The notes: a model not told the origin generated them from the sequence alone. A stretch of DNA of 34,086 bases from Candidatus Methanophagales archaeon (GCA_029241965.1 JAPWVK010000159.1:1-34086), one strand, 5' to 3'; counted from the first letter of the stretch, positions 16,980 to 31,066 are shown. Numbers and translations: made by a program.

Positions 16980-17783
16980 CTATTTCCTCTTTACGTAGTA
17001 ATAAAAACCTACAATGCCAATTATAACCAAAGCGACAATTAGAATGATTAAGAGTTTGTACGTTTGTTTTGGCGACACAGGCGCAGGAGTAATTGTTACC
17101 GTGGGTGCAGGTGTTGCAGTTATTGTTTGTTTAGTCAATGCAGGAGTTACTGCGGGCGCATCAGAACCAGGATAGGAATGTTGGTCATTCGGATCGGTTC
17201 CTACAAACGTCTCATCTATGTCGCGATAACCGTCTCCATCTGCGTCCGTTTCTCCGCCCGCGCCACTCCGATTATATGGTGGTGTGGTAGTCACTACGTA
17301 TAACAGCCCATTTCTTGCGGCTGACGTTCCGAAATTGCCCTCGGGATCCGACAATTCGATATCACTCAGCGTCATATGGCTATAATTTATCGAATCAGAT
17401 GTTCTTTCCACGCTAAAGTTGAGCAAAGCAATTGAACCACTTGACCCATTTGATATGGCATATGCAAAAGGACCAGCGAGTGAAACACGAGTCCCCCCCT
17501 CAAAATCGTTGTTAAACCCTAAAACATTCCATTCCAACGTTAGTTCCCCTCTTAAAACGTTTGTAACGTTTATGACTCGCTTGTCATAAGCTATATTAAA
17601 TACAATAGCTTGAACCGGCCCGTTTTTTACTGTTGTTATATTTACTGGCACGATTACATGTGTTCCCTGCACTCCACTTGCATCTACCAGACCAAAACCA
17701 TCGGCACTTGGCTGTGCAGATACGGGTATCAGTGCTATTACCAAACACATGCCTATTCCATACGCTAACGTTTTAATATTCAT
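16980..17783 (-). CDS. cohesin-domain surface protein with Ca-binding TSP3-like repeat, Thr/Pro linker and C-terminal TM anchor
   Basis: The signal peptide is MNIKTLAYGIGMCLVIALIPVSA; the start is set at 17783 rather than 17822. The cohesin-like domain has GTHVIVPVNITTVKNGPVQAIVFNIAYDKRVINVTNV...GSIALLNFSV...LSDIELSDPEGN. It also has a DADGDGYRDIDETFVGTDPND repeat. The C-terminal anchor is LLIILIVALVIIGIVGFYYYVKRK. Confidence 0.75.
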   Translation of the reverse strand: MNIKTLAYGIGMCLVIALIPVSAQPSADGFGLVDASGVQGTHVIVPVNITTVKNGPVQAIVFNIAYDKRVINVTNVLRGELTLEWNVLGFNNDFEGGTRVSLAGPFAYAISNGSSGSIALLNFSVERTSDSINYSHMTLSDIELSDPEGNFGTSAARNGLLYVVTTTPPYNRSGAGGETDADGDGYRDIDETFVGTDPNDQHSYPGSDAPAVTPALTKQTITATPAPTVTITPAPVSPKQTYKLLIILIVALVIIGIVGFYYYVKRK

Positions 17784-17794
17784 TTCTTTCTCCG

Positions 17795-18661
17795 TTATAC
17801 AACCCTTATTGCAGGAACCCAATCATCGTATATCTCCCCGTTTGCGTCCGTGAATTTGGTGCAGGTAATTTCTCCGCCTGTTACGTTTATTCTATGTTCG
17901 TGTACTATCTGCGGATATGATCCTGTTTTTATTGTATAGTTGTACTTTTTACCTTCTCTTAATTTAAATGTATTCGTGAAATTTATGTTTTGATACTCGT
18001 CATTGTAACCGTTCCATGAGGCACTTTCATTCACGCCATGCCCCTGAATCCAAACGTATTCGGTATGCCCGCCTGTGCCTTCACAGGAATACGTATAGAG
18101 TGTATGCACGGTAATATCAGCATTCGGCGTAATCGTTCCTATGTGTATGCCGGAGATGGAGGGATAGGTGCCTGGGCCCGTATGGAATATTGTTTTTTCG
18201 AGCACATTTACTGAGATCGGAATCCTAAGGCCAGAATATTCATTTCCACCAATATTTGTATCCTGAAATTGAATATACATCCTTCTCTCATCGGAATGCC
18301 CTACTTCGCATGCGCTTCCCGACGTTGCGCCATATAATCCTGGTTCGGCATTCTTTGGTATCTTGATTGTAACAGTAAAAGTTTTTATTTCTCCACTCTT
18401 GATCGTGTACTTCTCTGGTTCGACTCTGATCCATGATGTAATGTTAATCAATTCTTCATCATCTTTCTCTACATGCTCGTAATATACGGACCAATATCCA
18501 GTTCTCTCAGTAGGTATTGTCCCCACTAGTGTGATATTTTGATTTAATGTATCACCCGGACAGCCTTCCCAGTTGCACATAGAGCGGCAATCAACCGATG
18601 TCGCGGATGCCGCCGGAACGCACAACAGTGCAATCAACATTATCAGTATTATTTTCTTCAT
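17795..18661 (-). CDS. secreted surface protein: N-terminal Ig-like domain (paralog of 30464..31722 proteins) fused to a conserved C-terminal beta domain shared with 18800..19729
   Basis: 288 aa with a signal peptide. The N-terminal half aligns with 30464..31066 and 31063..31722 (CxxEGxxGD...TSWIxVxPExYTIKxGE...PGLYGATS...GHSxERRxYI). The C-terminal ~130 aa (YPSISGIHIGTITPNADITVHTLYTYSCEGTGGHTEYVWIQGHG...) is near-identical to the C-terminus of 18800..19729. Confidence 0.75.
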   Translation of the reverse strand: MKKIILIMLIALLCVPAASATSVDCRSMCNWEGCPGDTLNQNITLVGTIPTERTGYWSVYYEHVEKDDEELINITSWIRVEPEKYTIKSGEIKTFTVTIKIPKNAEPGLYGATSGSACEVGHSDERRMYIQFQDTNIGGNEYSGLRIPISVNVLEKTIFHTGPGTYPSISGIHIGTITPNADITVHTLYTYSCEGTGGHTEYVWIQGHGVNESASWNGYNDEYQNINFTNTFKLREGKKYNYTIKTGSYPQIVHEHRINVTGGEITCTKFTDANGEIYDDWVPAIRVV

Positions 18662-18799
18662 AATTACCTGTACTATTTTCGTATTAAAAGTACTTTATTA
18701 ATTTCATGCTCTTTGGTGTTTCCTTTGGCGCTATTACCAAACACAGCGCACTAATGCTTAATCCATACGCTAACGTTTTAATATTCATTTCTTTCTCCG

Positions 18800-19729
18800 T
18801 TATACAAACCTTATTGCAGGAACCCAATCATCGTATATCTCCCCGTTTGCGTCCGTGAATTTGGTGCAGGTGATTTCTCCGCCTGTTACGTTTTTGCTAT
18901 GTTCGTGTACTATCTGCGGATATGATCCTGTTTTTATTGTATAGTTGTACTTTTTACCTTCTACTAATATAAATGTATTCTCGAATTCTATGTTTTGATA
19001 ATCGTCATTGTAACCGTCCCATGAGGCACTTTCATTCACGCCATGCCCCTGAATCCAGACGTATTTGGTATGCCCGCCTGTGCCTTCACAGGAATACGTA
19101 TAGAGTGTATGCACGGTAATATCAGCATTCGGCGTAATCGTTCCAATGTGTATGCCGGAGATAGAGGGATAGGAGCCCTGACCCGTATCGAATAAAGTTC
19201 CGGTAGTATAAAACGTCCCGTTCTTCACTGGTGCTGGTCCTTCGTTACCAGACGGATCCGACAATTGAATATCACTCAGGTTCATGTCAGTTTTATATGG
19301 TGCACCGCCTATGACGCGGAAGTTAAGAAGGACGACAGAACCACTTGAGCCATTCAGTATGGCATGAGCGGATGGTCCTGAGAGTAAAACACGGGTACCC
19401 CATGCAAAGTTGTTGTTAAAGCCTAAATTGCCCCAATTAGACGTTAGAGTACCTCTTGAAACGCCTGTAACGTTTATAACCGTCTTGTCATACGCTATGT
19501 TGAATACAATGCCTAAAATCGGACCGCTGCTTGTATTTGTAATGTTTACCGGCACGGTTACATAAGTCCCTATAAGCCCATTGGCATCGTCAACACCGAA
19601 ATTATCTGCGGTGGGCGCCGCCAGAGCCGTTAACTCAAATATAGCAAATACCGTTAACAACCCGAATATAGCTAAACCCCCTCTCAGTCCTATTAAGCCT
19701 CTTCGTTTCCTCGATGCGGTTTTTTTCAT
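18800..19729 (-). CDS. cohesin-domain surface protein fused to the shared C-terminal beta domain
   Basis: 309 aa. It has a signal/TM segment and a cohesin-like domain (GTYVTVPVNITNTSSGPILGIVFNIAYDKTVINVTGV...GSVVLLNFRV...LSDIQLSDPSGN). The EGTGGHTKYVWIQGHG domain follows. Confidence 0.75.
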   Translation of the reverse strand: MKKTASRKRRGLIGLRGGLAIFGLLTVFAIFELTALAAPTADNFGVDDANGLIGTYVTVPVNITNTSSGPILGIVFNIAYDKTVINVTGVSRGTLTSNWGNLGFNNNFAWGTRVLLSGPSAHAILNGSSGSVVLLNFRVIGGAPYKTDMNLSDIQLSDPSGNEGPAPVKNGTFYTTGTLFDTGQGSYPSISGIHIGTITPNADITVHTLYTYSCEGTGGHTKYVWIQGHGVNESASWDGYNDDYQNIEFENTFILVEGKKYNYTIKTGSYPQIVHEHSKNVTGGEITCTKFTDANGEIYDDWVPAIRFV

Positions 19730-19760
19730 TGTAGTATAATATTTCTTTGGTAAAGCTTTT

Positions 19761-20810
19761 TCATTTCTTCTTTCGCAACCAAAGGTATCCCATGAGTACG
19801 AGCAATCCTCCAGAAACGAGGGTCATTGTACTCCATTCAGGAATCGGGTAGCCCGGGTCCGTTCCGGGTGATGATATGTAGCTCCATGCCATACCGGTCT
19901 GCACCTTGTAGTCATAGCTCGTATTGTTGTTTGTCAGATTGAGTGCTAAAAACTTTCCTGCCGGCACAGTAAACGCTGCTGCGGTTGTTTCAAACGAGAA
20001 GACGCTTTTGCTGCCGTTTCCAGTCAGTGTTGCCTGTGGTCCTCCGGCAGTAAAATTGGTGCCACCCGAAGAATTACCTATCTCAACCTTGAATGTATCT
20101 CCGTCTGCCGGTGCCGCGACAAACGTTATCTGCCCTGTCCAATTGTTGCCATTCACTGGAAAGGTAACGTCTGTCTGCGCCGCTGAATCCGCAACCCAGA
20201 TATGAGAGTCGCTGTGGTTTATGGTAATATTACCCTGTGGTTTGGTCTGGTTTCCCTTGTACATCTCGCTGTCGTTGTGCAGATACCAGGACTGTGTGCC
20301 GCTGACAGTAAAAGTCCCATTCTTTGGGGGGGCAGATCCTATTCTATAACCGCTTACATCTGAGAAGCTTATATTTACATACGTAAAGTTCATAGTACTT
20401 GTTTCACCCCGAGTTCCAATAACGCTGAAGTTGAGTAGAGCGACAGAACCACTTGACCCATTTGATATGTTATATTCGGCAGCTCCCGTCATGTAAACAC
20501 GAGTACCCCATGTAACGCTGTTGTTATAGTCGAAATTATTCCAACTAGACGTTAAATTACCTTTTAAAACGTCTGTAACGTTTATGACATTTTTGTCATA
20601 CACAATATTAAATATTATTCCCAAAAGTGGACCGTTGCTAACATTTGTAATGTTCACCGGCACAATCACCGAAGTCCCATGTGCGCCACTCGCATCGTCC
20701 ACACCAAAACTTTCCGCAGTAGGATCTTGTGCTGAAACAGGCATCGCCATTACAAGTACTGACAACAGCACGATTGCACTTAGTCCATGCACCCATCTAT
20801 TTCTATTCAT
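19761..20810 (-). CDS. cohesin-domain surface protein with a second beta domain and a C-terminal sorting/anchor signal
   Basis: 349 aa with a signal peptide. The cohesin-like domain has GTSVIVPVNITNVSNGPLLGIIFNIVYDKNVINVTDV...GSVALLNFSV. The C-terminus is PIPEWSTMTLVSGGLLVLMGYLWLRKKK: a motif, a TM helix and a basic tail, resembling PEF/PGF-CTERM archaeosortase-type signals (inference). Confidence 0.75.
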   Translation of the reverse strand: MNRNRWVHGLSAIVLLSVLVMAMPVSAQDPTAESFGVDDASGAHGTSVIVPVNITNVSNGPLLGIIFNIVYDKNVINVTDVLKGNLTSSWNNFDYNNSVTWGTRVYMTGAAEYNISNGSSGSVALLNFSVIGTRGETSTMNFTYVNISFSDVSGYRIGSAPPKNGTFTVSGTQSWYLHNDSEMYKGNQTKPQGNITINHSDSHIWVADSAAQTDVTFPVNGNNWTGQITFVAAPADGDTFKVEIGNSSGGTNFTAGGPQATLTGNGSKSVFSFETTAAAFTVPAGKFLALNLTNNNTSYDYKVQTGMAWSYISSPGTDPGYPIPEWSTMTLVSGGLLVLMGYLWLRKKK

Positions 20811-21084
20811 TTTTCTGGCTTCGGGGCAAAAATATATCTTTCCCCCCCTTTTTTCTAACCGCTTATCCCTTTCGCTTTTATTCTATATGCACTGTACCAT
20901 ATATAAAGTTGTATGTGGAGTGTTCCCTATATAAAGCTATACCTATGTGGAAACTATGGTGTGTGAACAGGCAGAAGCACAGGAGAATATGCGAATACGC
21001 TCTTTCGGTTGCAATAAAGTCCAATTTGGGTAATCTGTGCGATCCGTAGTTGACTATTATCCAGAGCACATTCGTCTCGCTTCA

Positions 21085-21714
21085 TCATGTCAATATGATT
21101 TCGCCCAATACCGCCCGGTTCATCAACACTAAATCGCCGGCATCTGCTATCCTATCGTTATGGTTCAAGTCCCACCGCCAATCTCCCGGTATTTCCCATA
21201 ACACCGCTCGGTTCATCAACACTAAATCGCCGGCATCTGCTGACTTCCCCTCATTGTTCAAATCGCCTACCAGCCAAAGCGATAGATTCGTGGTCTCATT
21301 GGCAGTTGCATTTACTTCAGTTGAGTTATCCCAATACCTTGTTTTCGAGGCGTTTACGTAATAATCGCCGGCATTAACGTTTGTAAAGTTGTAATAGCCC
21401 GTTCCGTTCGTGTGTGTTGAACTTACGACATTCATAGTGGTCGCGTTCGTCAAATTTACCGATACATTTGGCATCCCGATAGTAGTATTATTACTATATG
21501 TTATCTGCCCTGTTATAATTACGGGTGCGGGCAGCACCGTTACGTACTGTACTGCAGCAAACACGAGTGAGGGAAGCAGCGCTAATACCACTAAAATCAA
21601 TATGATCATCTCCTTCTTTCTATTACTCTGTTCCATCTTTTTAAATGCTCTTTTTTTGTTAGAATTTGCTTCAAAATCCAAAGCCGCACTAATCGCATTC
21701 ATTCTTCCCAGCAT
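21085..21714 (-). CDS. dockerin-containing secreted protein with a CarboxypepD_reg-like beta-sandwich domain
   Basis: The C-terminus carries a duplicated dockerin segment: GDLNNEGKSADAGDLVLMNRAVLWEI and WDLNHNDRIADAGDLVLMNRAVLGEI. The DNA duplication is visible at 21100-21250. The middle region GQITYSNNT...TNGTGYYNFTNVNAGDYYVNASK resembles a carboxypeptidase-regulatory-like fold. The internal Met at 21636 gives a cleaner signal peptide (MEQSNRKKEMIILILVVLALLPSLVFA). Confidence 0.75.
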   Translation of the reverse strand: MLGRMNAISAALDFEANSNKKRAFKKMEQSNRKKEMIILILVVLALLPSLVFAAVQYVTVLPAPVIITGQITYSNNTTIGMPNVSVNLTNATTMNVVSSTHTNGTGYYNFTNVNAGDYYVNASKTRYWDNSTEVNATANETTNLSLWLVGDLNNEGKSADAGDLVLMNRAVLWEIPGDWRWDLNHNDRIADAGDLVLMNRAVLGEIILT

Positions 21715-22136
21715 AGTTTAACCTTCTCCCCCTTTAAAAAGTTAGCATCGAAGAGGTCTAAACCATTGACCCTGCCTAAGATTGGCGGAACATCATTTGA
21801 ATCTGAAATTGCCACTGGTAACTCGAATTCTTTACCGTTGAGTCTAAATTTGAGTTGGTGAATGTAAACGATTAGTTTTGCGTACGGAACAATCCCTCTT
21901 GTGACATCTTCAATTAATAAGTCGCCGACATCTCTTGGTAGGACCGATATATCAGCACCAGTATCTGCTAATGCATTCTCTATTTTTATCCATTCTAAAG
22001 TATCGCCTTTTATTTCAACTTCAATCAGAGGTCTTAATACCTTCCCAAAAATTCCACTTTCTTTTTCCGTGTACTCAAAAACTTTCTCGGGCATTTGAAC
22101 ACCTAAGCTATTAAAATTCCTGCTGGTGGCTCCCAT
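21699..22136 (-). CDS. retropepsin-like (clan AA) aspartic protease
   Basis: 145 aa with an ALADTGADISVLP active-site motif and a C-terminal ILGRVNGLD flap/dimer-type segment. It is a full-length paralog of the truncated 6445..6696. Confidence 0.65.
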   Translation of the reverse strand: MGATSRNFNSLGVQMPEKVFEYTEKESGIFGKVLRPLIEVEIKGDTLEWIKIENALADTGADISVLPRDVGDLLIEDVTRGIVPYAKLIVYIHQLKFRLNGKEFELPVAISDSNDVPPILGRVNGLDLFDANFLKGEKVKLCWEE

Positions 22137-22343: not shown

Positions 22344-23801
22344 TTATACCGCTTCTCCCAACACCGACACCGTGGATGTGTCCGTTCCCGACCCTTTCAG
22401 CTCGTATGCCAGATACAAGTCATTGTAAGTTCCTACGGATACTGTTACCCCTGTATCTTTATAGCTACCCCATGACTTTAGAGTAGTCCAGCTACTGACC
22501 GCCCAGGGGCTCGTGTCATCTACGGTTACATTACAGAAATGAACCGGATAACTCTCTATGGCTGAAGACGTATTTGCATCCCTGACGAAGCATGCTAGCG
22601 TTATTGTCTCCCCTACGGTGTAACTATTTTCGTCAGGAGGCAAATCCCATGTTACGTTTGACCAGCCCCACTTAACCACCGACTCATTCTGATAAGAGCT
22701 GTTAGAATTAGATGCATTGTCATAAGTTGTTTCGGTAATATTGTATTCTCCGTCCTCAGGGACGGACAAAGTAACGACAAAAGTTCCATTTGTGGCGTTT
22801 GTAGTTGAATTGACTATCTTTCCTTCGTAAGGCACTTTGTCTATTTTCTTGATGATTACAGGTTTATTATTCTCATCAAGGGCGACCAAAATTCTTCCAT
22901 CCGAAATCTTCTGGTAGATGTTTTCTATCCTTATAAGAGAGAATTTATTTATATACCCGTTGCCAATATTATCAGTGGTGGTAGAAATGTCGGAAGTCGA
23001 AATCAGGTTTAAAGTTCCCACGGGATTGAAGGAAGAGATGGAAGAGCTTCCGGGAATGGAAGAGATGGTTGTAGAATTCATAAGGCTGAAGATTTTCGAG
23101 CATGAATTGAAGAAGTCTAAGGAATTACAGAGGTTCATATTTGAGTCGTTGTCCGCAAAGAGCAAATTGACGCTGGCAGATGCTATTGAACTTGGGGCGA
23201 AAATGAAGGAAGGAATGCTTGAAGAGCTCAAAGAGAAGGGATTACTGTAGATGAGACTGGTTGTGGATGCAAATGAGCTGTTCGCGGGGATAATCGCTAA
23301 AGGTAAGGAATTACAGAGTTGGACGCTGGACATATTATTTTCAGATGAAGTTGAATTGTTCGCACCTTTCATATTGCTTGCCGAATTGGAGAAGAACAGG
23401 GATGAGATAAGGGAAAAGTCAGGATTTTCCCTGAGGGATTTTGATGTGTTCGTTGGCATCCTCAAGTTAAGAGTCGGATTTATCCCTCTGGAGCGGTTTT
23501 TAGCTAAGATTCCGGAGGCTAAGGAGTTGGCACCGCATTTAAAAGATGTCGAATATTTCGCATAAGCATTGAAACTTGATTGCCCAATCTGGACGCAAGA
23601 AAAAGCGTTCAAAAAACAATCTGTAGTCAAGGTGTTCTCAACTCTTGATTTGTTTTCGTTTTTATCCGAGACAGGCCCATAGCCCGCTAAAGAGGTTGAA
23701 GGATATTTTGGATTGACTGAAGTGTAAACCTTATGCTCTGGCGAAAACGTCAGAACTGTTTCGTATCTACTCAAATCCATAAATCTTATTTTTTGCTTCA
23801 T
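22344..23801 (-). CDS. orphan 3' fragment: decayed Hint unit (no Cys1, truncated block F/G) fused to a shortened copy of the giant protein's C-terminal domain; probably a remnant or silent cassette
   Basis: Its ATG overlaps the giant gene's stop (ATGA at 23798-23801). The N-terminus KQKIRFMDLSRYETVLTFSPEHKVY aligns with QKPIKYLEYDY...LLVSPEHKVY. The middle ~230 aa is a Ser-rich translation antisense to TA cassette c. The C-terminal ~190 aa aligns with the giant protein's C-terminus. The last ~100 nt are about 90% identical by eye to 23798-23895. Confidence 0.55.
   Translation of the reverse strand: MKQKIRFMDLSRYETVLTFSPEHKVYTSVNPKYPSTSLAGYGPVSDKNENKSRVENTLTTDCFLNAFSCVQIGQSSFNAYAKYSTSFKCGANSLASGILAKNRSRGINPTLNLRMPTNTSKSLRENPDFSLISSLFFSNSASNMKGANNSTSSENNMSSVQLCNSLPLAIIPANSSFASTTSLIYSNPFSLSSSSIPSFIFAPSSIASASVNLLFADNDSNMNLCNSLDFFNSCSKIFSLMNSTTISSIPGSSSISSFNPVGTLNLISTSDISTTTDNIGNGYINKFSLIRIENIYQKISDGRILVALDENNKPVIIKKIDKVPYEGKIVNSTTNATNGTFVVTLSVPEDGEYNITETTYDNASNSNSSYQNESVVKWGWSNVTWDLPPDENSYTVGETITLACFVRDANTSSAIESYPVHFCNVTVDDTSPWAVSSWTTLKSWGSYKDTGVTVSVGTYNDLYLAYELKGSGTDTSTVSVLGEAV
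22987..23250 (+). CDS. small antitoxin-like protein, cassette c (antisense inside 22344..23801)
   Basis: Starts MSEVEIRFKVPTGLKEEMEEL and ends ...GAKMKEGMLEELKEKGLL. Layout and length match the antitoxins of cassettes a and b. Its stop abuts the PIN start (TAG-ATG). An AT-rich TATA-like ATTTATTTATATA lies about 35-45 nt upstream. Confidence 0.6.
   Translation: MSEVEIRFKVPTGLKEEMEELPGMEEMVVEFIRLKIFEHELKKSKELQRFIFESLSAKSKLTLADAIELGAKMKEGMLEELKEKGLL
23251..23682 (+). pseudogene. PIN-domain (VapC-like) toxin, cassette c, interrupted by an in-frame TAA at 23563-23565
   Basis: Starts MRLVVDANELFAGII.... It reads ...APHLKDVEYFA-stop-ALKLDCPIWTQEKAF...SETGP, compared with cassette b ...SPDPNDVDFFALALKLNCPLWSEDKLL...SLISP. 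The stop replaces a Leu (TTA to TAA). Homology continues in frame to TAG at 23680-23682. Confidence 0.6.
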
Positions 23802-26800
23802 ACCGCTTCTCCCAACACCGACACCGTGGATGTGCCCGTTCCCGACCCTTTCAGCTCGTATGCCAGATACAAGTCTTTGTGTGTTCCTTTGGATACTCTT
23901 ACCCCTGTATCTTTATAGCTACCCCAAGATTTTAGACTAATCCAGCTACCAACAGCCCCGGGGCTCGTGTCATTTGCGGTTACGTTAAACTTCTCGTCAT
24001 TTATTATTGTTGACCAACCGTTCACCTCTTCTACCTTCAGCCAGATCTTGTATTCAGTCGAAGAAGAAGGATTGTAAATTGTAACTACTGGTGAGTTACT
24101 GGTCACATTTTGCGGGTTGCCGCTGCCGTCCGCATTATTGTGTGGGTCAACTACTGTGGCACCAGTTGCACCCGAGAAGTTAATGGAACTGATACTCTGC
24201 GAAGCAGTTTGATTTCTGATTTCAAGTGTCGTTGCGTATGACAACTCTATGGATGTATTGGCTTCATCATCCGCAGTGACGTTATAAAACAGCGTGGCAT
24301 TATCCGTGATATTACATTTTGGATAGTACCATCCTACTGCCACGCCTGATGTATCCCAATCCAGGACGGCATATCCGCTGCTATTCGTGTAATTCAGACC
24401 AAGGTATGTCACGGTAGAGTCAGTCTTGTTATAAAAACGAACCGGATAATTCTCTATGCCCGATGAGGTATTGACATCGCGGACAAGGCATGTTAGCGTT
24501 ATTATCGCACCTGATTCGTAACTACTTCCGCCGGAAGGCGAGCCCCACGTTACGTTTGACCAACCCATCTTAAACACCGATTGATTTTGATACGAGATAT
24601 TATAATTCGATGCGTTATCATACATCTCTACCGACACGTTGTATTTCCCCTTAGCAGCACTTGAATTTAGATAAAAACTCGCATTTACATACGAATTTGG
24701 TGTGTAAGCAGTATCCGACGACGAATTGATGGTCGCAGTAGCGTTGTATATCGTGACCGTGTAGTTCTTTGGATTATCCTCCGTGTACGAGAAGTTGACA
24801 TAAAACTGCTCGCCGCCCTTCTTGTAGATTGGAACGGAAGTTGTAGGCACGTCTATCGTGATAGTCGGTGATTGCGAATCTATGGTGAAGTTCGTACCGA
24901 GCCACGTCTCTGACGTCTCGCCCTCATCGTCTGTTGCCACGCAATGCAACGTATAGAGTCCGGGACTATAATTGGATGCGTTGAACGCTATATCGGCAAT
25001 CCCGCCAGCGGCATCCGCTTCGGTAAAAGTATTGTTTACTATCGAAATAAATGTCTGGTTCGGATAGCACAAAGTCAGATTATGAACCACTGTGCCGCCG
25101 TCCGGATCGGTCGCAACCCCAACACCAATATCGAATATACCGTCATAGCTACCATTCATATCATAGTCCTTTACACCACTGATATTGAAATACCTAATGT
25201 GCGGGACGGTAGGTGGATAGTGCACCAATCTGATGTCGTTTGTAAGCAGCGTTGAATTGCTCCAACTACCCGATGCGTTTGCTGCATACAGCTTCATCTG
25301 GTGCTGCATACCACTTTTAGAGTAGTCGAAAAATAACTTCGGCGTCCATGCCGCCTGCAAAAATGACGAGCCATCATTGGTACTCGTCCATGCAACGTTT
25401 GTTTGCGCAAACGATATGTTCATACCGCTCGTACCATCTACATACGCCAGGCGGTACTCATTGCTTGTAGCTGTCGGAGATCGGAAGTATATGTATCCAT
25501 GCGGTGTTGTGTTTACGTCAGAACCTATAACCCTGCTATTGTTCACACCAATCGTAAAGGTCACGAACGAACTGTTGTACGGCTCGTACGTGTAATCATC
25601 TACTGTTGTGCCAGTGTACGAAGTCAAGTAAGTATAATATGGACTTTCGAGTGGCTTACCGCCAGTGATGTTATACGAGTCGTTTAGGTAGTAAATATCA
25701 AGATTGTTCGATGCTCCCAGATCGGTTGCCTCGAAAGCGATATGTATTTTATAGTCCGAAGAACCTTTAATTGCTTCAGTGTCCCAGAACTTGACCAGAG
25801 CAGCACGGTATCCTGTTGAGCCCTGTTTATAGATGTCATAATATTTGCTAATCTCTTTCTGCATCCGCGTCCTATCTAAGTAATACATGTTCTCAAATAC
25901 AGTATTCTCAACCGTGCCATTCCAGTGCACATACGAGTGCGTGTCATTTACCTTTTGGATAGTAAGCCGGGAAGTGTTTTCATCCGCGCCCGCCCATTTC
26001 CAGACGTTGCCCTCTGTGATGGTGGCATTATCCTCAAAGTTCAAGCGCTGTATTGTAGCATTCCGGTTATCGGCACGTAGAATCTGCTCGTTGCATAAAG
26101 CCCATACCGCAGATTTGTTGTTGCTCGGAACACGGAGTGACCAGTTATAACTATCGAGCACCGAGTCCCAGAGCGTCCAGACGAGCGATACGCTGCTGTT
26201 ATTGAGTGTATGTGTAGCATCCGTAGTAACCAACCAGGTTACGTTGAATGCACCGGTCGAGTTCTCGTAAATCGTAGCCGGCTCCTGCGAGATGAGTTCA
26301 AATGTCGGACAGCCCGCCTGATTGTATGCATAATCGACGTCACCACCAAATCGAAACTCTAATGCGTGTTTGCCCGAAGTTAAAACCTTACTTGTTTCGT
26401 AGCTGGTTTCGTTACAGGAATAATTGTGTATGAATAAGGAATTGTTTCGCCATTGATAATCCAGTGTGCGATTGCCGCATTTCAGGGCAAGCAATTGCAG
26501 GTCATAGTTTGAGTTGCCGCACCAGACAGGCGTTGAGTTTTTACGCCGTATTAAAAGTATGCGGTTCGGGACGGTAACAGAGTAAATCTTGCCGTTATAA
26601 GGGACTTCTTCGATTTTTTTTACTGCTACGGGATTCTGTTCGGAATCGAGGAATACTAACTGTTTGTCGGGTAGCTCGTGGAGTTCCGAGATTTTTAGCA
26701 ATGAATAGGTATTTAAACCGTTCGGATTTATAGTATTAGTGATGACGGTTTCTTTTTCATTCACGGTCACAGGCATCGAGAAGTTATTTAAATACAGCAA

Positions 26801-29800
26801 GTTAGTTTTATTATTGGTGAGAGAAATGGCCGAAATAGTTGTTAAGGTTCCAGAGGATATTGGTATAGAGCTTGGTAGGGTTTCAGAAGAGAATTGGCAA
26901 TTGTTATTCTCAAGATTCCTGAGAAGAGAGCTGGAAGAAATAAGAGGGATCGAAGCGATAGTATCTAAATCAAAACTAACAGAGGAGCAAGCCAAAGAAT
27001 TAGCAGATGAAGTAAGTTTAGCGATAGCTAAAAGACTTCTTGAGAAGTGATTCGAGATGTTATTGGTAGTTGACGCTAATGTCGTATTCTCAGCACTAAT
27101 AAGAAGAGGCAAGCCATTAAGGGTATTTGAGTTGAACAAGCTTCTCATGAAATTTGAATTTATTGCACCAGAGTTCCTGTTCTTTGAGGTGGGTAAAAGA
27201 ATGGATAAAATACTCAAGCTCACAGATTTATCTAAAGAAGAGTTCATAACGGTTTTTTCATTCATTAAGAATGAACTCGAGCTAATTCCTCTTGAAACAT
27301 TTGAAGATAAAGTTGATGAAGCCAAGGAGAGATCACCACACTTGAAGGATATGCCATATGTTGCTTTATCCCTCAAATTCGATTGTAAGATTCTGTCTGG
27401 AGATAAAGGAATAAAGGAATGCTTGCCTGGTAGAGTCATCATACCATCTAAAGCCTTAAGAATTCTATTTGGGAGGACTGCACCATAAACCTTATGCTCA
27501 GGCGAAACCAGCAGTTGACTGCCATCTTCCAGAGTAAGCTCGAACATCGCATCCGAATAGTCGTATTCCAGATATTTAATCGGTTTCTGATTGCAAAAAA
27601 GTTTTGTGTGTTCTTTTGTAATTTGTGGTTTCCTTGTGGTTTCGTTATGCCGTTTCACCAGCACGATGTCGTTCGGGACGTCAACGTCATAAATCTTGCC
27701 GGTATAAGGGACTTCTTCGATTTTTTTTACTGCTACGGGATTCAGCTCGGAGTCAAGGAATACTAACTGTTTGTCTGATAGCTTGTCATAGAGTTCCGAT
27801 ATTTTTAGCAATGAATAAGTATTTAAATACAGCAAGCCAGTCTTATAATTAGGGGCGATAGAAATGTCAGAGTTAGTTGTTGAGGTTCCAGGATTGCTTA
27901 GAGGAGAGGTTGGTAAGCTAGAGCGAGAGATAGAGGAGCTAATATCGTGGGAGGAGAAGCGTAAATTACTCTCTCTGTTCATGGATGAGGTTATGAAAGA
28001 TGCTAAACAGTTGAGCGAAGACGAACTGGTTACACTTGGAAGAGAGATTAAGAAAGGCAGGTTTGAAAAGCTCAAGCAAAGGGGGTTTGTATGAGTGCGG
28101 TTAGTTGCTGACACAACCGAACTCTTCTCGTTCTTCAACGCTCGGTCAAAGGCAAGGGAGTTATCCATAATCCCTGAATTGGAATTACATTCCCCCTCCT
28201 TTTCTTTATATGAACTCAAAGAACATAAATCCAAGATTCTTACGAGTTTCTCGTTGACCGAGACACAGTTTCTATTGATAATGAAGTTGCTTAAGACCGT
28301 TGTAAAAGTTGCTAAAGAGGAAGAATACTCGGATTTTCTATCGGAGGCTAAGGAAATATCTCCAGACCCTAACGATGTAGATTTCTTTGCGTTGGCTCTG
28401 AAACTGAACTGTCCGCTTTGGTCAGAGGATAAGCTGCTAAAGGGGCAGTCTAAGGTTAAGGTACTCTCTACAAAAGATTTACTTGAACTTTTATCTCTCA
28501 TCAGCCCATAAACCTTATGCTCAGGCGAAACCAGCAGTTTACTGCCATCCGCCAGAGTAAGCTTGAACATCGCATCCGAATAGTCGTATTCCAGATATTT
28601 AATCGGTTTCTGCCATTCCTGCTCTCCCGTCTCCTGGTTTAAAGTCAGAACTTCTTCTTCTGGTTCTAAATCTTTGAACAGTTTCCAGCCTTCTTTTGTT
28701 AGAACCTCGGTTTCTTCGTCGTAACATTCGTACGGTTGGTTAGTCCAGGTCGTCCCGTTAACCGCGGTTATAGTCAAATCCGCAGTTCCTTCCGTCTCGA
28801 ACTTGACAGACCAGTTTCCACCTACTGCTGGATAAGACTGGACATTAATTATACTAATCGGATCAACAGCAACATACCAGGGTCTTGCCTCTGTAAATGT
28901 TTCTGAATCATAACTAATTTCCGCAGTACCTAAAGCGTACAAATAAGGCCACACAGGAGGAACTGCGTAAGAATAACTGACAGATGTTTTCTTGCCAATT
29001 AAATCTTTATTCCAGGTTATTGTCTTTGTATCGTCTTCCTGCATAACCGTAGCGGCATCCGTTGAATACACATCGAACTCAGCAGGCACAAATTCTTTTA
29101 ACGTTACGGATTCCGCATCAGTAAAGCATTCTACGTCAATCCTGACCTCAAACCTGTCCTGCAGTGTGGGGTCTATCTTGCTTTGTGTCGTTCTTATGAT
29201 GTCGAATTCATACTCCGGCTGAACCCGGAAATACGTATTGAAGAATACTTCAACGTTGTCAATTAAACCCGTGACTGAGATCGAGTGATTACCCTCTATT
29301 TCCGTTGGGTAATCCAGGTTATAAATGCCAGATTCGCTACTTGCGGTAATCGTGCCATCAGCGGTGGAATAAATCGTTTCCTCGTTATCGGGATTGTTTA
29401 CGGTTAAATAAAGATCGGCATTGCTGACTGAGTGCCCTGCTTTATCCAGGACAACGATAACGAATTCCACGGTTTCACCGGGTTTGTAGATGCTTTTTTT
29501 GGTGTTTACGGAAACAAGGCCCCACGGGAATTCGGATTCTAAAACGTAAACGTGCTCGTCCTTCACTAACTCCACACTTAATGTATATACGCCCACTCGG
29601 AATGCTCGTTCCTTAGGCAATTTAATTGCGAATTTGCCTTCGCCTTTTTTCGCTATTTCGGGCGCGATGTCTGTTAGTGCACCCGAAGAATCATAAACAA
29701 AAGTCTCTATCGTTTCGTTTTCTGTCACCCAGCGTTTCAATGCTTTTTGGGGTGCGCCAATAGCAGCTTCCTCACTTACAGTGCTAAGCATTTCCCGCGA

Positions 29801-30460
29801 TGCGTTTTCGGTAACATTTTCATTAAAAGTTTTCTGCGAAGCGTTTTTGATAAAACTTTTATTAAAAGTTTTATATTCAAACGAAAAAGTCGGTTCCTCA
29901 TCCAGGGAATAAGACTCTTTGTTTGCAATTAGTTTTGGCGGTTCAATCACGGATTCCGTAACATTAATATTACGTGATTCACCTGTTGATTCGTTAATCG
30001 TATAATTCAAACCGATGACGGAGGTATTATCAGTTGCATTTTCCGGTGTTTGTATCGTAACGCCCGAGGCATTACCTGTTGTATTATCCGTTGTATTTTC
30101 CGGTGTTTGTAACGTAACGCCCGAGGCATTACCTGTTGTACTATTATTAGTTGCAGTTTCAGGTGTTTGTATCGTAATGCCCGTGGCATTATCAGTTGTG
30201 TTATCAGTTACATTATCAGGTGATAGTATCGGATTTATCGGTGCCGTTACGTCCGTAATATTTTCTGACGGGGTATCATTAAGGTTAGTTACGTATGATG
30301 TAATGTTTTCAGGCAGCGTTGTGTTCTCGTTTTGTGTTGCACCAAAAGCGATTAAAGGCACGATAAGCAAAGCTATGACAATTGTAATGCGTGCGCTCTT
30401 CCAGTTTGTTTTTGCTCTTAGCATCTTTTCGCAGGTCAAGCTTCCTTTTCTATCATACAT
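23798..30460 (-). CDS. giant (2220 aa) secreted, sequon-rich surface protein interrupted by a composite Hint/intein region
   Basis: Single uninterrupted ORF. The N-terminal hydrophobic signal/anchor is ARITIVIALLIVPLIAFGA. It has three tandem ~19-aa repeats (GNASGVTxQTPENxTDNT) and very many N-x-S/T sequons. It is beta-rich throughout. The intein blocks lie at aa 579-1308. It is tightly packed with upstream genes: 3-nt gap, then an ATGA overlap. Confidence 0.85.
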   Translation of the reverse strand: MYDRKGSLTCEKMLRAKTNWKSARITIVIALLIVPLIAFGATQNENTTLPENITSYVTNLNDTPSENITDVTAPINPILSPDNVTDNTTDNATGITIQTPETATNNSTTGNASGVTLQTPENTTDNTTGNASGVTIQTPENATDNTSVIGLNYTINESTGESRNINVTESVIEPPKLIANKESYSLDEEPTFSFEYKTFNKSFIKNASQKTFNENVTENASREMLSTVSEEAAIGAPQKALKRWVTENETIETFVYDSSGALTDIAPEIAKKGEGKFAIKLPKERAFRVGVYTLSVELVKDEHVYVLESEFPWGLVSVNTKKSIYKPGETVEFVIVVLDKAGHSVSNADLYLTVNNPDNEETIYSTADGTITASSESGIYNLDYPTEIEGNHSISVTGLIDNVEVFFNTYFRVQPEYEFDIIRTTQSKIDPTLQDRFEVRIDVECFTDAESVTLKEFVPAEFDVYSTDAATVMQEDDTKTITWNKDLIGKKTSVSYSYAVPPVWPYLYALGTAEISYDSETFTEARPWYVAVDPISIINVQSYPAVGGNWSVKFETEGTADLTITAVNGTTWTNQPYECYDEETEVLTKEGWKLFKDLEPEEEVLTLNQETGEQEWQKPIKYLEYDYSDAMFKLTLADGSKLLVSPEHKVYGLMRDKSSSKSFVESTLTLDCPFSSLSSDQSGQFSFRANAKKSTSLGSGDISLASDRKSEYSSSLATFTTVLSNFIINRNCVSVNEKLVRILDLCSLSSYKEKEGECNSNSGIMDNSLAFDRALKNEKSSVVSATNRTHTNPLCLSFSNLPFLISLPSVTSSSSLNCLASFITSSMNRESNLRFSSHDISSSISRSSLPTSPLSNPGTSTTNSDISIAPNYKTGLLYLNTYSLLKISELYDKLSDKQLVFLDSELNPVAVKKIEEVPYTGKIYDVDVPNDIVLVKRHNETTRKPQITKEHTKLFCNQKPIKYLEYDYSDAMFELTLEDGSQLLVSPEHKVYGAVLPNRILKALDGMMTLPGKHSFIPLSPDRILQSNLRDKATYGISFKCGDLSLASSTLSSNVSRGISSSSFLMNEKTVMNSSLDKSVSLSILSILLPTSKNRNSGAINSNFMRSLFNSNTLNGLPLLISAENTTLASTTNNISNHFSRSLLAIAKLTSSANSLACSSVSFDLDTIASIPLISSSSLLRNLENNNCQFSSETLPSSIPISSGTLTTISAISLTNNKTNLLYLNNFSMPVTVNEKETVITNTINPNGLNTYSLLKISELHELPDKQLVFLDSEQNPVAVKKIEEVPYNGKIYSVTVPNRILLIRRKNSTPVWCGNSNYDLQLLALKCGNRTLDYQWRNNSLFIHNYSCNETSYETSKVLTSGKHALEFRFGGDVDYAYNQAGCPTFELISQEPATIYENSTGAFNVTWLVTTDATHTLNNSSVSLVWTLWDSVLDSYNWSLRVPSNNKSAVWALCNEQILRADNRNATIQRLNFEDNATITEGNVWKWAGADENTSRLTIQKVNDTHSYVHWNGTVENTVFENMYYLDRTRMQKEISKYYDIYKQGSTGYRAALVKFWDTEAIKGSSDYKIHIAFEATDLGASNNLDIYYLNDSYNITGGKPLESPYYTYLTSYTGTTVDDYTYEPYNSSFVTFTIGVNNSRVIGSDVNTTPHGYIYFRSPTATSNEYRLAYVDGTSGMNISFAQTNVAWTSTNDGSSFLQAAWTPKLFFDYSKSGMQHQMKLYAANASGSWSNSTLLTNDIRLVHYPPTVPHIRYFNISGVKDYDMNGSYDGIFDIGVGVATDPDGGTVVHNLTLCYPNQTFISIVNNTFTEADAAGGIADIAFNASNYSPGLYTLHCVATDDEGETSETWLGTNFTIDSQSPTITIDVPTTSVPIYKKGGEQFYVNFSYTEDNPKNYTVTIYNATATINSSSDTAYTPNSYVNASFYLNSSAAKGKYNVSVEMYDNASNYNISYQNQSVFKMGWSNVTWGSPSGGSSYESGAIITLTCLVRDVNTSSGIENYPVRFYNKTDSTVTYLGLNYTNSSGYAVLDWDTSGVAVGWYYPKCNITDNATLFYNVTADDEANTSIELSYATTLEIRNQTASQSISSINFSGATGATVVDPHNNADGSGNPQNVTSNSPVVTIYNPSSSTEYKIWLKVEEVNGWSTIINDEKFNVTANDTSPGAVGSWISLKSWGSYKDTGVRVSKGTHKDLYLAYELKGSGTGTSTVSVLGEAV
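26826..27050 (+). CDS. small antitoxin-like protein, cassette a (antisense inside the giant ORF)
   Basis: Starts MAEIVVKVPEDIGIELGRV and ends ...SKSKLTEEQAKELADEVSLAIAKRLLEK. The start is set at the internal Met (26826) by analogy with cassettes b and c. TATTTAAATA at 26785-26794 and a GGTGA SD-like motif precede it. It ends 6 nt before the PIN start. Confidence 0.65.
   Translation: MAEIVVKVPEDIGIELGRVSEENWQLLFSRFLRRELEEIRGIEAIVSKSKLTEEQAKELADEVSLAIAKRLLEK
27057..27488 (+). CDS. PIN-domain (VapC-like) toxin, cassette a
   Basis: 143 aa with a PIN acidic quartet layout: LLVVDANVVFSAL (Asp), FFEVGKR (Glu), SPHLKDMPYVALSL (Asp), KILSGDKGI (Asp). Its last codons overlap, antisense, the HKVYG block-B codons of Hint unit 2. 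Confidence 0.8.
   Translation: MLLVVDANVVFSALIRRGKPLRVFELNKLLMKFEFIAPEFLFFEVGKRMDKILKLTDLSKEEFITVFSFIKNELELIPLETFEDKVDEAKERSPHLKDMPYVALSLKFDCKILSGDKGIKECLPGRVIIPSKALRILFGRTAP
27864..28094 (+). CDS. small antitoxin-like protein, cassette b (antisense inside the giant ORF)
   Basis: Starts MSELVVEVPGLLRGEVGKLEREIEEL and ends ...QLSEDELVTLGREIKKGRFEKLKQRGFV. TATTTAAATA lies at 27820-27829, about 35 nt upstream. Its stop TGA directly abuts the GTG start of the PIN gene. Confidence 0.65.
   Translation: MSELVVEVPGLLRGEVGKLEREIEELISWEEKRKLLSLFMDEVMKDAKQLSEDELVTLGREIKKGRFEKLKQRGFV
28095..28511 (+). CDS. PIN-domain (VapC-like) toxin, cassette b (GTG start)
   Basis: 138 aa: RLVADTTELFSFF (Asp), SLYELKEHK (Glu), SPDPNDVDFFALAL (Asp), PLWSEDKLL (Asp). 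The layout matches cassette a although the sequence is divergent. Its 3' end overlaps, antisense, the HKVYG codons of Hint unit 1. Confidence 0.75.
   Translation: MRLVADTTELFSFFNARSKARELSIIPELELHSPSFSLYELKEHKSKILTSFSLTETQFLLIMKLLKTVVKVAKEEEYSDFLSEAKEISPDPNDVDFFALALKLNCPLWSEDKLLKGQSKVKVLSTKDLLELLSLISP
30039..30215 (-). repeat. three tandem 57-60-nt coding repeats in the giant protein N-terminus
   Basis: The plus-strand unit is TTTTCCGGTGTTTGTATCGTAACGCCCGAGGCATTACCTGTTGTATTATCCGTTGTA, repeated at about 30039, 30096 and 30156. It encodes T(D/G)NxxG(I/V)TxQTPExxTxNx(T/S) repeats rich in sequons. Confidence 0.8.
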
Positions 30461-30463: not shown

Positions 30464-31066
30464 TTATCTTTTCCTTCTCAACCACACCACAATCAATATA
30501 ATTACGATTGCCACGAGCGCAACAAGATGATTATTCTCCTTTAGTTCCCTTGTAATAAGGGTAAACGGATTTTGCACTGCTAAAACGTTTACTGATGCAG
30601 GTATCAGGAGCCCCGTATAAACTGTAGAGTCACCTGCACCTGCTGCTGCCGCCGAAGCATCCTCAAACAAGATGTATGTCCTTCTTTCACCGGAATGCCC
30701 TTCCATGCCTGCATCTTCAGAAGTGGCACCATACAATCCAGGTTTTGCATCTTTCGGTATGCTTATCCGCACTGAAAACTCCTTTTCTTCCCCTGCTTTA
30801 AGTGTGTAATCCTCAGGAATTACCTCTAGCCAGCTCGTTATGTTTGCCTTCGCCGAATCACCTTCCACCGTTTTATAAAAAGTGCGCCAGTGCCCTATCC
30901 TTTCCACTGATGTGCACTCCAGCGTGACTGGTATAGTAAGCACATCGCCTGCATATCCTTCGTTATTGCAGATGGATAACCGATTTACCGCGGTTGCTGC
31001 TACAGATGCGATAGTTACTACGAAGATGAGAACCAATATTGTTAGTGCTATTGGTATCTGCCTCAT
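30464..31066 (-). CDS. anchored surface protein (signal peptide, Ig-like/CARDB-NEW3-like domain, C-terminal TM plus RRKR tail)
   Basis: 200 aa and a paralog of 31063..31722. The shared pattern is CNxEGYAGD...TSWLEVIPEDYTLKAGEEKEF...PGLYGATSEDAGMEGHSGERRTYI...YTGLLIPASVNVL. The fold name is a guess. Confidence 0.7.
   Translation of the reverse strand: MRQIPIALTILVLIFVVTIASVAATAVNRLSICNNEGYAGDVLTIPVTLECTSVERIGHWRTFYKTVEGDSAKANITSWLEVIPEDYTLKAGEEKEFSVRISIPKDAKPGLYGATSEDAGMEGHSGERRTYILFEDASAAAAGAGDSTVYTGLLIPASVNVLAVQNPFTLITRELKENNHLVALVAIVIILIVVWLRRKR

Follow-up and report, generated by a model that had tools for sequence, protein, structure and literature searches.

The window analysed here is a stretch of 34,086 nucleotides from Candidatus Methanophagales archaeon (GCA_029241965.1, JAPWVK010000159.1:1-34086), an ANME-1 (Methanophagaceae) organism, and on the chromosome of this methane-oxidising archaeon it carries a genuine cohesin–dockerin gene cluster. 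Open reading frames are present at 21085..21714, 19761..20810, 18800..19729 and 16980..17783, all on the minus strand, and on the coding strand the dockerin gene comes first and the cohesin genes follow, which reverses the order given in an earlier sequence-only reading of this DNA. That reading had also described the three cohesin genes as consecutive and placed a giant-protein operon just downstream; here a 288-aa non-cohesin gene (17795..18661, minus strand) separates the second and third cohesin genes, and the cluster is preceded on its upstream side by the giant-protein gene (30460..23798). Between the dockerin and cohesin genes is an intergenic gap of 274 nt (20811..21084), in which two TTTATATA-like boxes can be read at approximately 20935 and 20905 of the minus strand. 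These TATA-like boxes may give the cohesin genes an archaeal promoter of their own, and because of the gap that holds them the dockerin and cohesin genes may not be co-transcribed.

At the head of the cluster, two NEW3/CARDB-like paralogues of 200 and 219 aa (30464..31722, minus strand; 46% identical to each other) end in putative TM and RRKR anchors. The giant surface-protein gene (23798..30460, minus strand) encodes 2220 aa with a signal/anchor helix, an MG2 domain (Pfam, 47.7 bits) and an intein of about 754 aa (Intein_splicing, 37.1 bits). Within the intein, PIN-domain gene cassettes lie on the opposite strand.

The three cohesin genes encode paralogous, putatively secreted proteins with one N-terminal cohesin each. 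Cohesin protein 1 (349 aa; 19761..20810, minus strand) comprises a signal peptide, the cohesin (20301-20720), a beta-rich middle domain (19866-20300) and a C-terminal tail; cohesin protein 2 (309 aa; 18800..19729, minus strand) a signal peptide and the cohesin (19202-19612), followed by a C-terminal domain, hereafter CTD (18803-19195); and cohesin protein 3 (16980..17783, minus strand) a signal peptide and the cohesin (17292-17708). The last is 267 aa long when read from its ATG, while its longest ORF begins at TTG 17822. The N-terminal cohesin-like domains recognised in the sequence-only reading are borne out: they are 54–59% identical in pairwise alignments, the same three copies emerge at 70–75% identity from a DNA repeat search (family D1), and all share the pattern GTxVxVPVNIT..GP...I.FNI.YDK.VINVT.V, GS..LLNF.V, LSDI.LSDP.GN, the last motif of which is degenerate in the 349-aa protein. 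Searching with Pfam Cohesin (PF00963), a check proposed with that reading, gave 49.5, 42.2 and 33 bits for the 349-, 309- and 280-aa proteins, respectively (the last figure being for protein 3). As all three scores exceed the gathering cut-off of 24.1 bits, the similarity is far beyond chance. A search of the PDB with the cohesin profile (A6) returned 21 matches, all of them cohesins, the best being 4uyp_A (6.5e-11), and the best single-sequence PDB match of the 349-aa protein is 2xdh, a cohesin of A. fulgidus (E 0.0016). The proteins had been called putative scaffolds; each bears a single cohesin, and none is a multi-cohesin scaffold.

Each cohesin protein ends in a different way. Protein 1 has a tail of PIPEW, a TM helix and RKKK (19764-19853, minus strand), much as the sequence-only reading had it, and this tail is kept in relatives, with PEW in L086 and PEY in L001, another species. 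The tail gave no match at E ≤ 10 to the NCBIfam PEF-CTERM model TIGR03024, and its sole NCBIfam match was the generic LPXTG_anchor, near threshold at 15.1 versus 15.9 bits; in its tripartite arrangement of PE[W/Y], TM helix and basic residues, it resembles a sortase/archaeosortase-type signal. Protein 3 carries a TSP3-like Ca-binding repeat (17184-17246; TSP3_bac, 19.9 bits, below the cut-off of 25), a Pro/Thr linker (17058-17165) and a TM helix with KRK (16983-17057), all on the minus strand, the TM anchor having already been noted; orthologues in L001, L004 and L086 have an identical layout. Protein 2 had been thought to have no anchor, but it ends in the CTD, which is highly conserved and promiscuous. 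The same three tail types, PE[WY] tail, CTD and TSP3–TM, recur in relatives.

The CTD is an all-beta sandwich of about 130 aa, and a second copy (17798-18190, minus strand) ends the 288-aa protein. The latter has a signal peptide and a NEW3/CARDB-like domain (18200-18601) and gave no match to Pfam Cohesin; its N-terminal domain and the TM-anchored 200-aa protein at 30464..31066 share 49% identity. The 288-aa and 309-aa genes match at 95% DNA identity over the CTD and 46 nt of flank on its 3' side (repeat family D2). The NEW3-like domain and the cohesin are each found with either a TM anchor or a CTD. Beyond the window, the CTD occurs in about 1,100 clusters (50% identity) of otherwise unrelated secreted proteins and gives 488 matches in GTDB species genomes, with many per ANME-1 genome. 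It makes up the very C-terminal end of 106 of 111 proteins, a few carrying it internally, and it is joined to its hosts through Pro/Thr linkers, sometimes as a tandem of two. The top 150 matches to it differ unusually little in score (about 212–226 bits), and two Cys, a GTGGH motif and an SYP motif are invariant. No Pfam or NCBIfam model matches the CTD, and a Foldseek structure search gave nothing at E ≤ 1e-3. The PHR domain (MYCBP2/BTBD2; PDB 3gbw, 3no8, 3hwj), with which we compared it, is only about 10% identical to the CTD and is found inside eukaryotic cells. Possible functional analogues include SLH domains, CBMs and T9SS C-terminal domains.

Judging from its sequence and distribution, the CTD is probably an anchoring module. 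The more specific proposal that it is an undescribed, lineage-specific envelope-anchoring or docking module, and that the cluster is a dedicated anchoring kit for the giant surface protein, is one we put forward tentatively, at somewhat less than even odds. Rather unlikely, in our assessment, is that the CTD is not an envelope anchor and instead serves as a tag for secretion or sorting that an export or processing machine recognises and possibly removes, by analogy with the C-terminal domain of the bacterial T9SS, or as a second docking module with its own receptor. Such a role would suit a C-terminal placement on so many unrelated secreted proteins, the invariant residues, and the uniform scores, which imply a single conserved interaction. 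However, tandem and internal copies are unusual for a cleaved tag, and this analysis identified no candidate machinery or receptor.

The dockerin protein gene (21085..21714, minus strand) has a longest ORF of 209 aa, but homologues begin at M27, so the ATG at 21636 is the most likely start, giving 183 aa with a signal peptide at 21556-21636. Orthologues in ANME-1/Methanophagaceae are 68-92% identical. The protein consists of an Ig-like beta-sandwich of the CarboxypepD_reg type (21271..21522, minus strand; PF13620, 44.4 bits versus a cut-off of 32.3) and a dockerin module (21088..21270, minus strand), without a cargo domain. The module comprises two loop-helix repeats (21190-21267 and 21097-21174; aa 150-175 and 181-206 of the 209-aa ORF) with 16 of 17 helix residues identical, and the segment ADAGDLVLMNRAVL[W/G]EI occurs twice (aa 159–175 and 190–206), in agreement with the duplicated segment reported in the sequence-only reading. 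The duplication is also visible in the DNA as a 74-nt direct repeat, 81% identical (family D3).

The identification of the module as a dockerin draws on several comparisons, not all of which agree. The Pfam search proposed for it did not reach threshold: Dockerin_1 (PF00404) scored 12 bits (E 0.25), where 22.9 would be needed, a result that goes with low identity to the clostridial modules. Dockerin_1 is nevertheless the sole Pfam match of the module, with an alignment from end to end (3-55 versus 2-56 of 57). When the family profile (A1) was searched against the PDB, the top eight matches were all solved dockerins with both repeats covered (E 0.007-0.12), and hhalign against the CelS/XynY dockerins gave a probability of 89.8% over 57 columns. 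In alignments to solved dockerins, D or N occupies loop positions 1, 3, 5, 9 and 12, with E at position 5 of the first repeat, and each Ca loop has a one-residue insertion relative to canonical dockerins. An AlphaFold model of the protein (pLDDT 85.7) predicts helices at 135-145 and 166-176 with pLDDT of about 90-95. The top Foldseek matches of this model are clostridial type II X-module–dockerin (X-Doc) chains (E 1.2e-7), and the sandwich and dockerin align together over some 158 columns to 5k39_B, 4u3s_B, 5m0y_B and 2b59_B, suggesting that the sandwich resembles an X-module-like partner of the dockerin. The dockerin is a mobile module: the sandwich–dockerin dyad also occurs in P0017-P0019, P0059 and a 678-aa protein of L001, and the same dockerin is C-terminal on unrelated hosts, namely Big_1, fn3, NosD+cohesin and CAP proteins. 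The dockerin of the cluster keeps an 'LMNRAVL' helix signature across species, whereas those on other hosts read 'LMKRASIGEI'.

The 183-aa protein as a whole is thus matched best in structure by chains of the clostridial type II system, in which the X-module–dockerin of CipA/ScaA binds type II cohesins of the SLH-anchored SdbA/OlpB/Orf2p (2b59, 5k39, 4u3s, 5m0y). Both systems share an Ig-like module directly before the dockerin, the symmetry of a duplicated-segment dockerin, and cohesins on envelope-anchored proteins, which here is a prediction. They differ in that the cluster has no glycoside hydrolases, CBM-scaffoldin or SLH domains, that each protein has one cohesin, that the X-Doc protein is free-standing and without cargo, and that the putative anchors are a TM helix, PE[WY] tail or CTD; the dockerins also differ by the extra residue per Ca loop and low sequence identity. 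A cellulosome in the strict sense was considered and rejected, as each window protein has one cohesin, the window's only dockerin is without an enzyme, and a Pfam search found no GH or CBM families in the cluster.

It could also be argued that the cohesin-like domains are adhesive or carbohydrate-binding Ig-like sandwiches for contact between ANME and a partner or the matrix, and that the dockerin-like repeats are only Ca-binding stabilisers. Non-cellulosomal cohesin- and dockerin-like modules are mostly without demonstrated partners (Peer et al. 2009, cited in PMC9012536 and PMC5244752), the Pfam score for Dockerin_1 is sub-threshold, and adhesion is what Timmers 2017 (PMC5244752) proposes. 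Yet the module has the full two-repeat dockerin architecture with acidic or amide residues at canonical loop positions, the strict co-occurrence of cohesins and dockerin in one cluster is what is expected of receptor and ligand, and the cohesin–dockerin pair of A. fulgidus binds specifically (Haimovitz 2008, cited in PMC9012536). We consider this reading highly improbable. The A. fulgidus proteins AF2375/AF2376 (cohesin 2xdh) are likewise archaeal and non-cellulosomal, but there one protein holds both cohesin and dockerin, and copies per genome are few, in contrast to the dedicated multi-gene cluster described here, in a type of genome for which about 80 cohesins are reported.

The gene order is conserved. 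A giant surface protein, a dockerin protein and then two to four cohesin proteins recur in other ANME-1 genomes (L001, L004/L005, L086/L087) with proteins 68–92% identical; a giant gene stands ahead of the dockerin gene in L001, L004, L005 and L087, and the dockerin gene adjoins cohesin genes in all loci examined. The close relatives L086 and L087 lack the 288-aa gene, and their three cohesin genes directly follow one another. The L001 cluster has an additional protein with two cohesins and a dockerin of a different helix signature, and dockerin and cohesin(s) lie on one protein elsewhere among relatives (P0018, P0021, P0059 and the L001 678-aa protein).

That the dockerin of the cluster pairs with its cohesins is suggested by two observations, their co-location and the distinctive helix signature. 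The modules might instead be genuine without being mutual partners, the cohesins binding dockerins encoded elsewhere and the X-Doc protein docking on another cohesin, in a scaffoldin-like protein or on another cell. In cellulosomes, binding between a cohesin and a dockerin carried by one protein is unusual. The L001 protein with its different signature and the possible separate promoter between dockerin and cohesin genes fit non-partnership, as does the wide choice of partners: ANME-1 genomes have about 80 cohesin and 112–149 dockerin domains according to the available text of Timmers 2017 (PMC5244752). Against it stand the adjoining of dockerin and cohesin genes in every locus and the conservation across species of a signature private to the operon dockerin, and we regard non-partnership as unlikely.

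Taken together, we moderately favour a conserved ANME-1 envelope cluster in which envelope-bound cohesins capture dockerin-bearing secreted proteins and so organise a structure around the giant protein. The cohesins would be receptors at different positions of the envelope, to which three C-terminal devices would fix them: the PE[W/Y] tail, the CTD, and the TSP3 repeat with Pro/Thr spacer and TM helix. Capture would be Ca-dependent; the co-encoded dockerin, with its own 'LMNRAVL' signature, would be the first ligand to consider, and some of the more than 100 dockerin proteins reported for ANME-1 genomes are further candidates. Since the set always comes after a giant surface-protein gene, its probable role is to fasten or organise an extracellular structure with that protein at its core. 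The cell-surface assembly system suggested from the sequence alone fits this conserved synteny and the proposals in the ANME literature.

The abundance of cohesin and dockerin domains in ANME-1 was already known (Timmers 2017, PMC5244752; Chadwick 2022, PMC9012536), and both studies put forward a role at the surface or in adhesion. As far as their available text goes, these studies give genome-wide domain counts and general trends, whereas here one conserved cluster is described; the cluster, the private dockerin signature and the CTD do not appear in the available main text of either. If the CTD is indeed an envelope-anchoring module, ANME-1 and related alkane-oxidising archaea would have in it a third 'glue' system in addition to cohesin and dockerin. 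Within the cluster described here it would be interchangeable with membrane anchors, and more widely it would fix some 1,000 secreted proteins, among them proteases, beta-helix proteins, adhesin-like repeats, ABC substrate-binding proteins and cohesins, to the envelope, sheath or matrix.

The sequence-only reading had recognised a shared cohesin-like pattern at the N-termini of three proteins, here termed cohesin protein 1 (349 aa, 20810..19761), cohesin protein 2 (309 aa, 19729..18800) and cohesin protein 3 (267 aa from an ATG, 17783..16980; the longest ORF starts from a TTG at 17822), which are encoded on the minus strand, as is every gene of the cluster. The pattern is present in all three domains, which are 54–59% identical in pairwise comparison, and all three exceed the gathering score of the Pfam Cohesin model (49.5, 42.2, and 33 bits versus 24.1). 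Searching the PDB with a profile of the cluster cohesins and their relatives retrieved 21 distinct sequences, every one of them a cohesin (best E 6.5e-11), while the best solved relative in a single-sequence search was 2xdh, a non-cellulosomal cohesin from Archaeoglobus fulgidus. On these comparisons we regard the three N-terminal domains as genuine cohesins. The 288-aa protein encoded at 18661..17795 (minus strand) was considered as a fourth cohesin and rejected, as it matched neither the Pfam model nor a local cohesin HMM.

The dockerin had been proposed for the protein encoded at 21714..21085 (minus strand). When its 62-aa C-terminal module was scanned alone, Dockerin_1 was the sole Pfam match and aligned end to end, but its 12 bits (E 0.25) fall short of the 22.9-bit cut-off, so that the decisive Pfam check of the sequence-only reading fails for the dockerin; no dockerin was listed for the whole protein by Pfam or NCBIfam at default sensitivity, and phmmer against the PDB matched the beta-sandwich of this protein and not the dockerin. 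The proposed identity is upheld by four independent lines of evidence. The same dockerin is found C-terminally on otherwise unrelated Big_1, fn3, NosD-like plus cohesin, and CAP proteins, showing the module to be mobile. A profile of nine dockerin modules searched against the PDB returned solved dockerins as its best eight matches, with both repeats covered; the dockerins retrieved were CelS, XynY, 4dh2_B, 4fl4_A, 2y3n_B, and 2jnk. Profile–profile comparison with the CelS and XynY dockerins using hhalign gave a probability of 89.8% over 57 columns at 39% identity. Finally, an AlphaFold model of the protein (pLDDT 85.7, about 90–95 in the dockerin part) predicts two loop-helix units, and Foldseek with the whole model ranked first the type II X-module–dockerin chains from Clostridium thermocellum and its relatives, led by 5k39_B (E 1.2e-7) and followed by 4u3s_B, 5m0y_B, 2b59_B, 4wi0_B, 4fl4_C, and 3kcp_A, with about 158 columns aligned in every case. 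Alignment to solved dockerins places conserved D/N residues at Ca-loop positions 1, 3, 5, 9, and 12, with E at position 5 in the first repeat and one extra residue in each of the two loops. We conclude that the 62-aa module is a real dockerin of a divergent subtype.

The dockerin protein comprises a signal peptide, then a sandwich of the CarboxypepD_reg type (44.4 bits) and the dockerin, with nothing else, and is thus a free-standing X-Doc-like dyad that carries no cargo. The same dyad recurs in relatives' proteins (P0017–P0019 and P0059), in a 678-aa protein at the related locus L001, and in many fragments; a dockerin-profile search of a 5.8-billion-protein database returned short fragments throughout. 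Its two dockerin helices are nearly identical (ADAGDLVLMNRAVL[W/G]EI), and in clostridial type I dockerins such helix symmetry underlies a dual binding mode. The signature LMNRAVL is kept in the cluster dockerin at the loci of relatives with the same cluster (L001, L004/L005, and L086/L087), whereas the dockerins of other host proteins, such as P0017 and P0022, carry LMKRASIGEI instead. The K-to-N change falls at what we take to be the Lys-Arg position, which contributes to specificity in C. thermocellum dockerins, and a dedicated partner for the LMNRAVL dockerin is therefore plausible. The window holds this one dockerin, and no further dockerins or copies of the C-terminal domain described below were found in it beyond those listed here.

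In transcription order, the ORFs begin with that of a 2220-aa giant surface protein (30460..23798), followed by a 485-aa ORF (23801..22344), a 145-aa ORF (22136..21699), and the dockerin gene, and then, after a 274-nt gap, by cohesin genes 1 and 2, the 288-aa gene, and cohesin gene 3. The giant-protein gene, which had been placed downstream of the dockerin and cohesin genes, is thus transcribed ahead of them, and the cohesin genes, described as consecutive, are interrupted by the 288-aa gene between the second and third. TTTATATA-like boxes in the 274-nt gap suggest that the cohesin genes may have a separate promoter; a sigma-70 promoter and terminator scan, whose model is unsuited to archaea, did not rise above shuffled sequence (16 promoter-like sites versus 17.8 expected). 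The flanks of the cluster hold the housekeeping genes for GyrB, TyrRS, AglB/STT3, MatE, CoaBC, tRNA-Leu, and tRNA-Ala, and GyrB, TyrRS, AglB/STT3, CoaBC, and the tRNAs rule out a virus or mobile-element origin, so that the cluster is chromosomal DNA. Exact and near-exact homologues come from ANME-1/Candidatus Methanophagaceae assemblies.

Several neighbouring genes deserve mention. The 145-aa ORF has weak retropepsin-like/clan AA aspartic protease matches (RVP, E 0.003; TIGR03698, E 0.064) and has no counterpart at the same position in L001, L004, or L087. At the head of the cluster lie two paralogous NEW3/CARDB-like proteins with TM and RRKR anchors that are 46% identical (30464-31066 and 31063-31722, minus strand), and a 187-aa secreted protein (31856-32419, minus strand) whose weak similarity to the giant protein (31% over 88 aa) falls in the C-terminal region of the latter. 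A secreted CAP-domain protein (PF00188; 328-1197) and an STT3/AglB oligosaccharyltransferase (2293-4026) are encoded nearby on the minus strand; the window CAP protein lacks a dockerin, while relatives have a CAP-plus-dockerin protein, P0022. The cluster proteins are predicted to be secreted from their hydrophobic N-terminal segments and AxA-like sites read by eye. Their N-x-S/T sequons are dense, with as many as 6.6 per 100 aa, which, with the neighbouring AglB/STT3 gene, would fit glycosylated surface proteins.

The arrangement recurs in relatives. L001 (GCA_964400255.1), whose dockerin protein is 68% identical to that of the window, encodes small proteins, giant ORFs, the dockerin protein, a cohesin with a PEY tail, the 678-aa protein (two cohesins, a sandwich, and a dockerin), a cohesin–CTD protein, and a cohesin–TSP3–TM protein, where CTD denotes the C-terminal domain of about 130 aa discussed below. 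L004/L005 carry a 3010-aa giant protein with DUF2341 and LamG domains, the dockerin protein, cohesin–CTD, and cohesin–TM. In the close relatives L086/L087, the giant ORF, the dockerin protein, and three cohesin genes in succession are followed by CoaBC as in the window. As the 288-aa gene is missing from these close relatives, it is an insertion specific to the window genome. Its CTD and 46 nt of 3' flank share 95% DNA identity with those of cohesin gene 2, a relationship that includes a 300-nt direct repeat (17749-18048 versus 18754-19053, 95% identity) spanning the 3' part of the CTD and 46 nt past the stops. This identity indicates recent duplication or gene conversion. With the absence of the gene from L086/L087, it suggests that a NEW3-like N-terminal domain was lately joined to the CTD of the neighbouring gene, by insertion or by gene conversion.

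The giant ORF itself contains an insertion of about 754 aa (window ~26414-28675, in the minus-strand frame) with a Pfam Intein_splicing match over aa 596–930; the L004 orthologue lacks the insertion, its sequence continuing across the site. Within this intein-like insertion, two two-gene cassettes on the opposite strand (27849-28091 with 28095-28511, and 26709-27047 with 27057-27488, plus strand) each pair a small ORF with a PIN_2 protein (E 2.7e-20 and 8.4e-22); they occupy the place expected of a homing endonuclease, with degenerate, duplicated Hint pieces between them. The 485-aa ORF overlaps the stop of the giant ORF (ATGA). It opens with a Hint segment truncated at the N-terminus, harbours a third antisense PIN_2 cassette (22918-23250 and 23251-23565, plus strand), and closes with a second version of the C-terminal domain found in the giant protein. 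A 699-aa ORF at L001 (4488-6587) has the same layout with an intact 'VWSGN|S' intein end. The host frame has zero stops across every cassette, compared with 12–24 in each of the other two antisense frames. As synonymous resampling gave a probability of zero stops of 0.17–0.48 per cassette, amino-acid composition largely accounts for the open host frame. In 51 of 80 metagenomic relatives of the PIN_2 gene, an open antisense frame fully covers the PIN gene, reaching up to 1,496 codons and sometimes crossing tandem cassettes (for example L140:1-4488, L139:1-4257, and L162:3-3491). Only about 7 of the 80 loci have recognisable pieces of this Hint type, and L162 gives a weak Intein_splicing match. 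The cover may reflect nesting in inteins or a compositional property of the PIN_2 family. In the literature searched, no relevant account of inteins with toxin–antitoxin or PIN genes turned up.

The three cohesin proteins differ in their C-termini. Protein 1 bears the PEW-type tail noted previously, GYPIPEW followed by a hydrophobic helix and RKKK (PEW in the L086 orthologue, PEY in L001); its layout resembles a PEF-CTERM-like tripartite sorting signal, but no PEF-CTERM or PGF-CTERM model of NCBIfam matched it. Protein 3 ends, as also noted, in a TM helix with KRK, preceded by a TSP3-like Ca-binding repeat, sub-threshold in the window and recorded for the orthologues, and a Pro/Thr spacer. Protein 2 had been described as lacking an anchor; it ends instead in the CTD, a putative anchor equivalent. 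A search with the full protein returned 720 proteins, in many of which just the final 42% of the query aligned, at 55–66% identity. By precomputed Pfam annotation of the search results, the CTD is hosted by subtilase, beta-helix/NosD, Big_1, fn3, Kelch, PKD, FG-GAP, peptidase C25, CARDB, ABC substrate-binding, and dockerin and cohesin architectures. Of 111 proteins checked, 106 have the CTD at their extreme C-terminus; it often stands behind a Pro/Thr linker and is in tandem in some proteins. Against 1.84 billion cluster representatives, the CTD profile matched 1,100 clusters at E ≤ 1e-3, of which 855 reached E ≤ 1e-30, and among the best 150 of the 1,100 the domain is nearly always C-terminal with strikingly uniform scores. 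GTDB species genomes gave 488 matches with many copies per genome, mostly in Methanophagales/ANME-1, Syntrophoarchaeum, and Methanospirareceae, with few in Methanocellales. Two Cys, GTGGH, SYP, and several Trp/Tyr are among the positions that never vary; no Pfam or NCBIfam model matched the CTD, and Foldseek with its model found nothing significant in the PDB. Two substitutions argue that the CTD may be functionally equivalent to an anchor: the cohesin is joined to a TM helix, to a PE[WY] tail, or to the CTD, with the order unchanged from species to species, and a NEW3/CARDB-like domain comes with the CTD in the 288-aa protein or with TM and RRKR in the 200-aa protein at the cluster head, the two domains being 49% identical. 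The CTD may instead be a sorting tag or a second docking module.

ANME-1 archaea, which oxidise methane, have not been grown in pure culture and occur as chains and consortia, and to our knowledge their extracellular architecture is poorly understood. We propose that the cohesin proteins would act as envelope-bound receptors at different positions (in the membrane, possibly lipid- or sortase-processed, or via the CTD) that capture secreted dockerin-bearing proteins in a Ca-dependent manner. The co-encoded X-Doc protein would be the first candidate ligand, and, its gene always coming after that of the giant surface protein at the loci compared, it may be an adaptor or cap associated with that protein. 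The cluster is not a cellulosome: the window has no multi-cohesin scaffoldin, glycoside hydrolases, or CBM-scaffoldin, and the word scaffold used in the sequence-only reading is therefore misplaced. Its module identities stand, while its gene order, one anchor statement, and this term do not.

A survey of ANME-1 genomes put the cohesin domains at about 80 and the dockerin domains at 112–149, and proposed adhesion roles for them (Timmers et al. 2017, PMC5244752), and Chadwick et al. (2022, PMC9012536) treat the extensive dockerin/cohesin proteins of ANME in a section of their own, note scaffoldin-like proteins, and name experiments on which modules bind each other as the next step. Given these surveys, the abundance of the modules is already known, and the window cluster is a further case of a known phenomenon. 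The consulted text of the two papers makes no mention of the conserved cluster, the trio of tethers, a free-standing X-Doc-like protein with a private signature, or the CTD family, and a literature search for other ANME cohesin/dockerin work, and for the CTD by keyword, found nothing further. The value of the cluster lies in tractable candidate pairs and an undescribed CTD: one private-signature dockerin, three cohesins, and three different tethers form a small test set that is conserved in arrangement across species, and every module is small enough to be assayed for binding in recombinant form. The CTD of protein 2 is the most interesting element within 16980-21714. If it indeed serves for anchoring, much of the ANME-1 surface proteome would be defined by it, and it would offer a handle for envelope studies, for example as an affinity tag or localisation probe.
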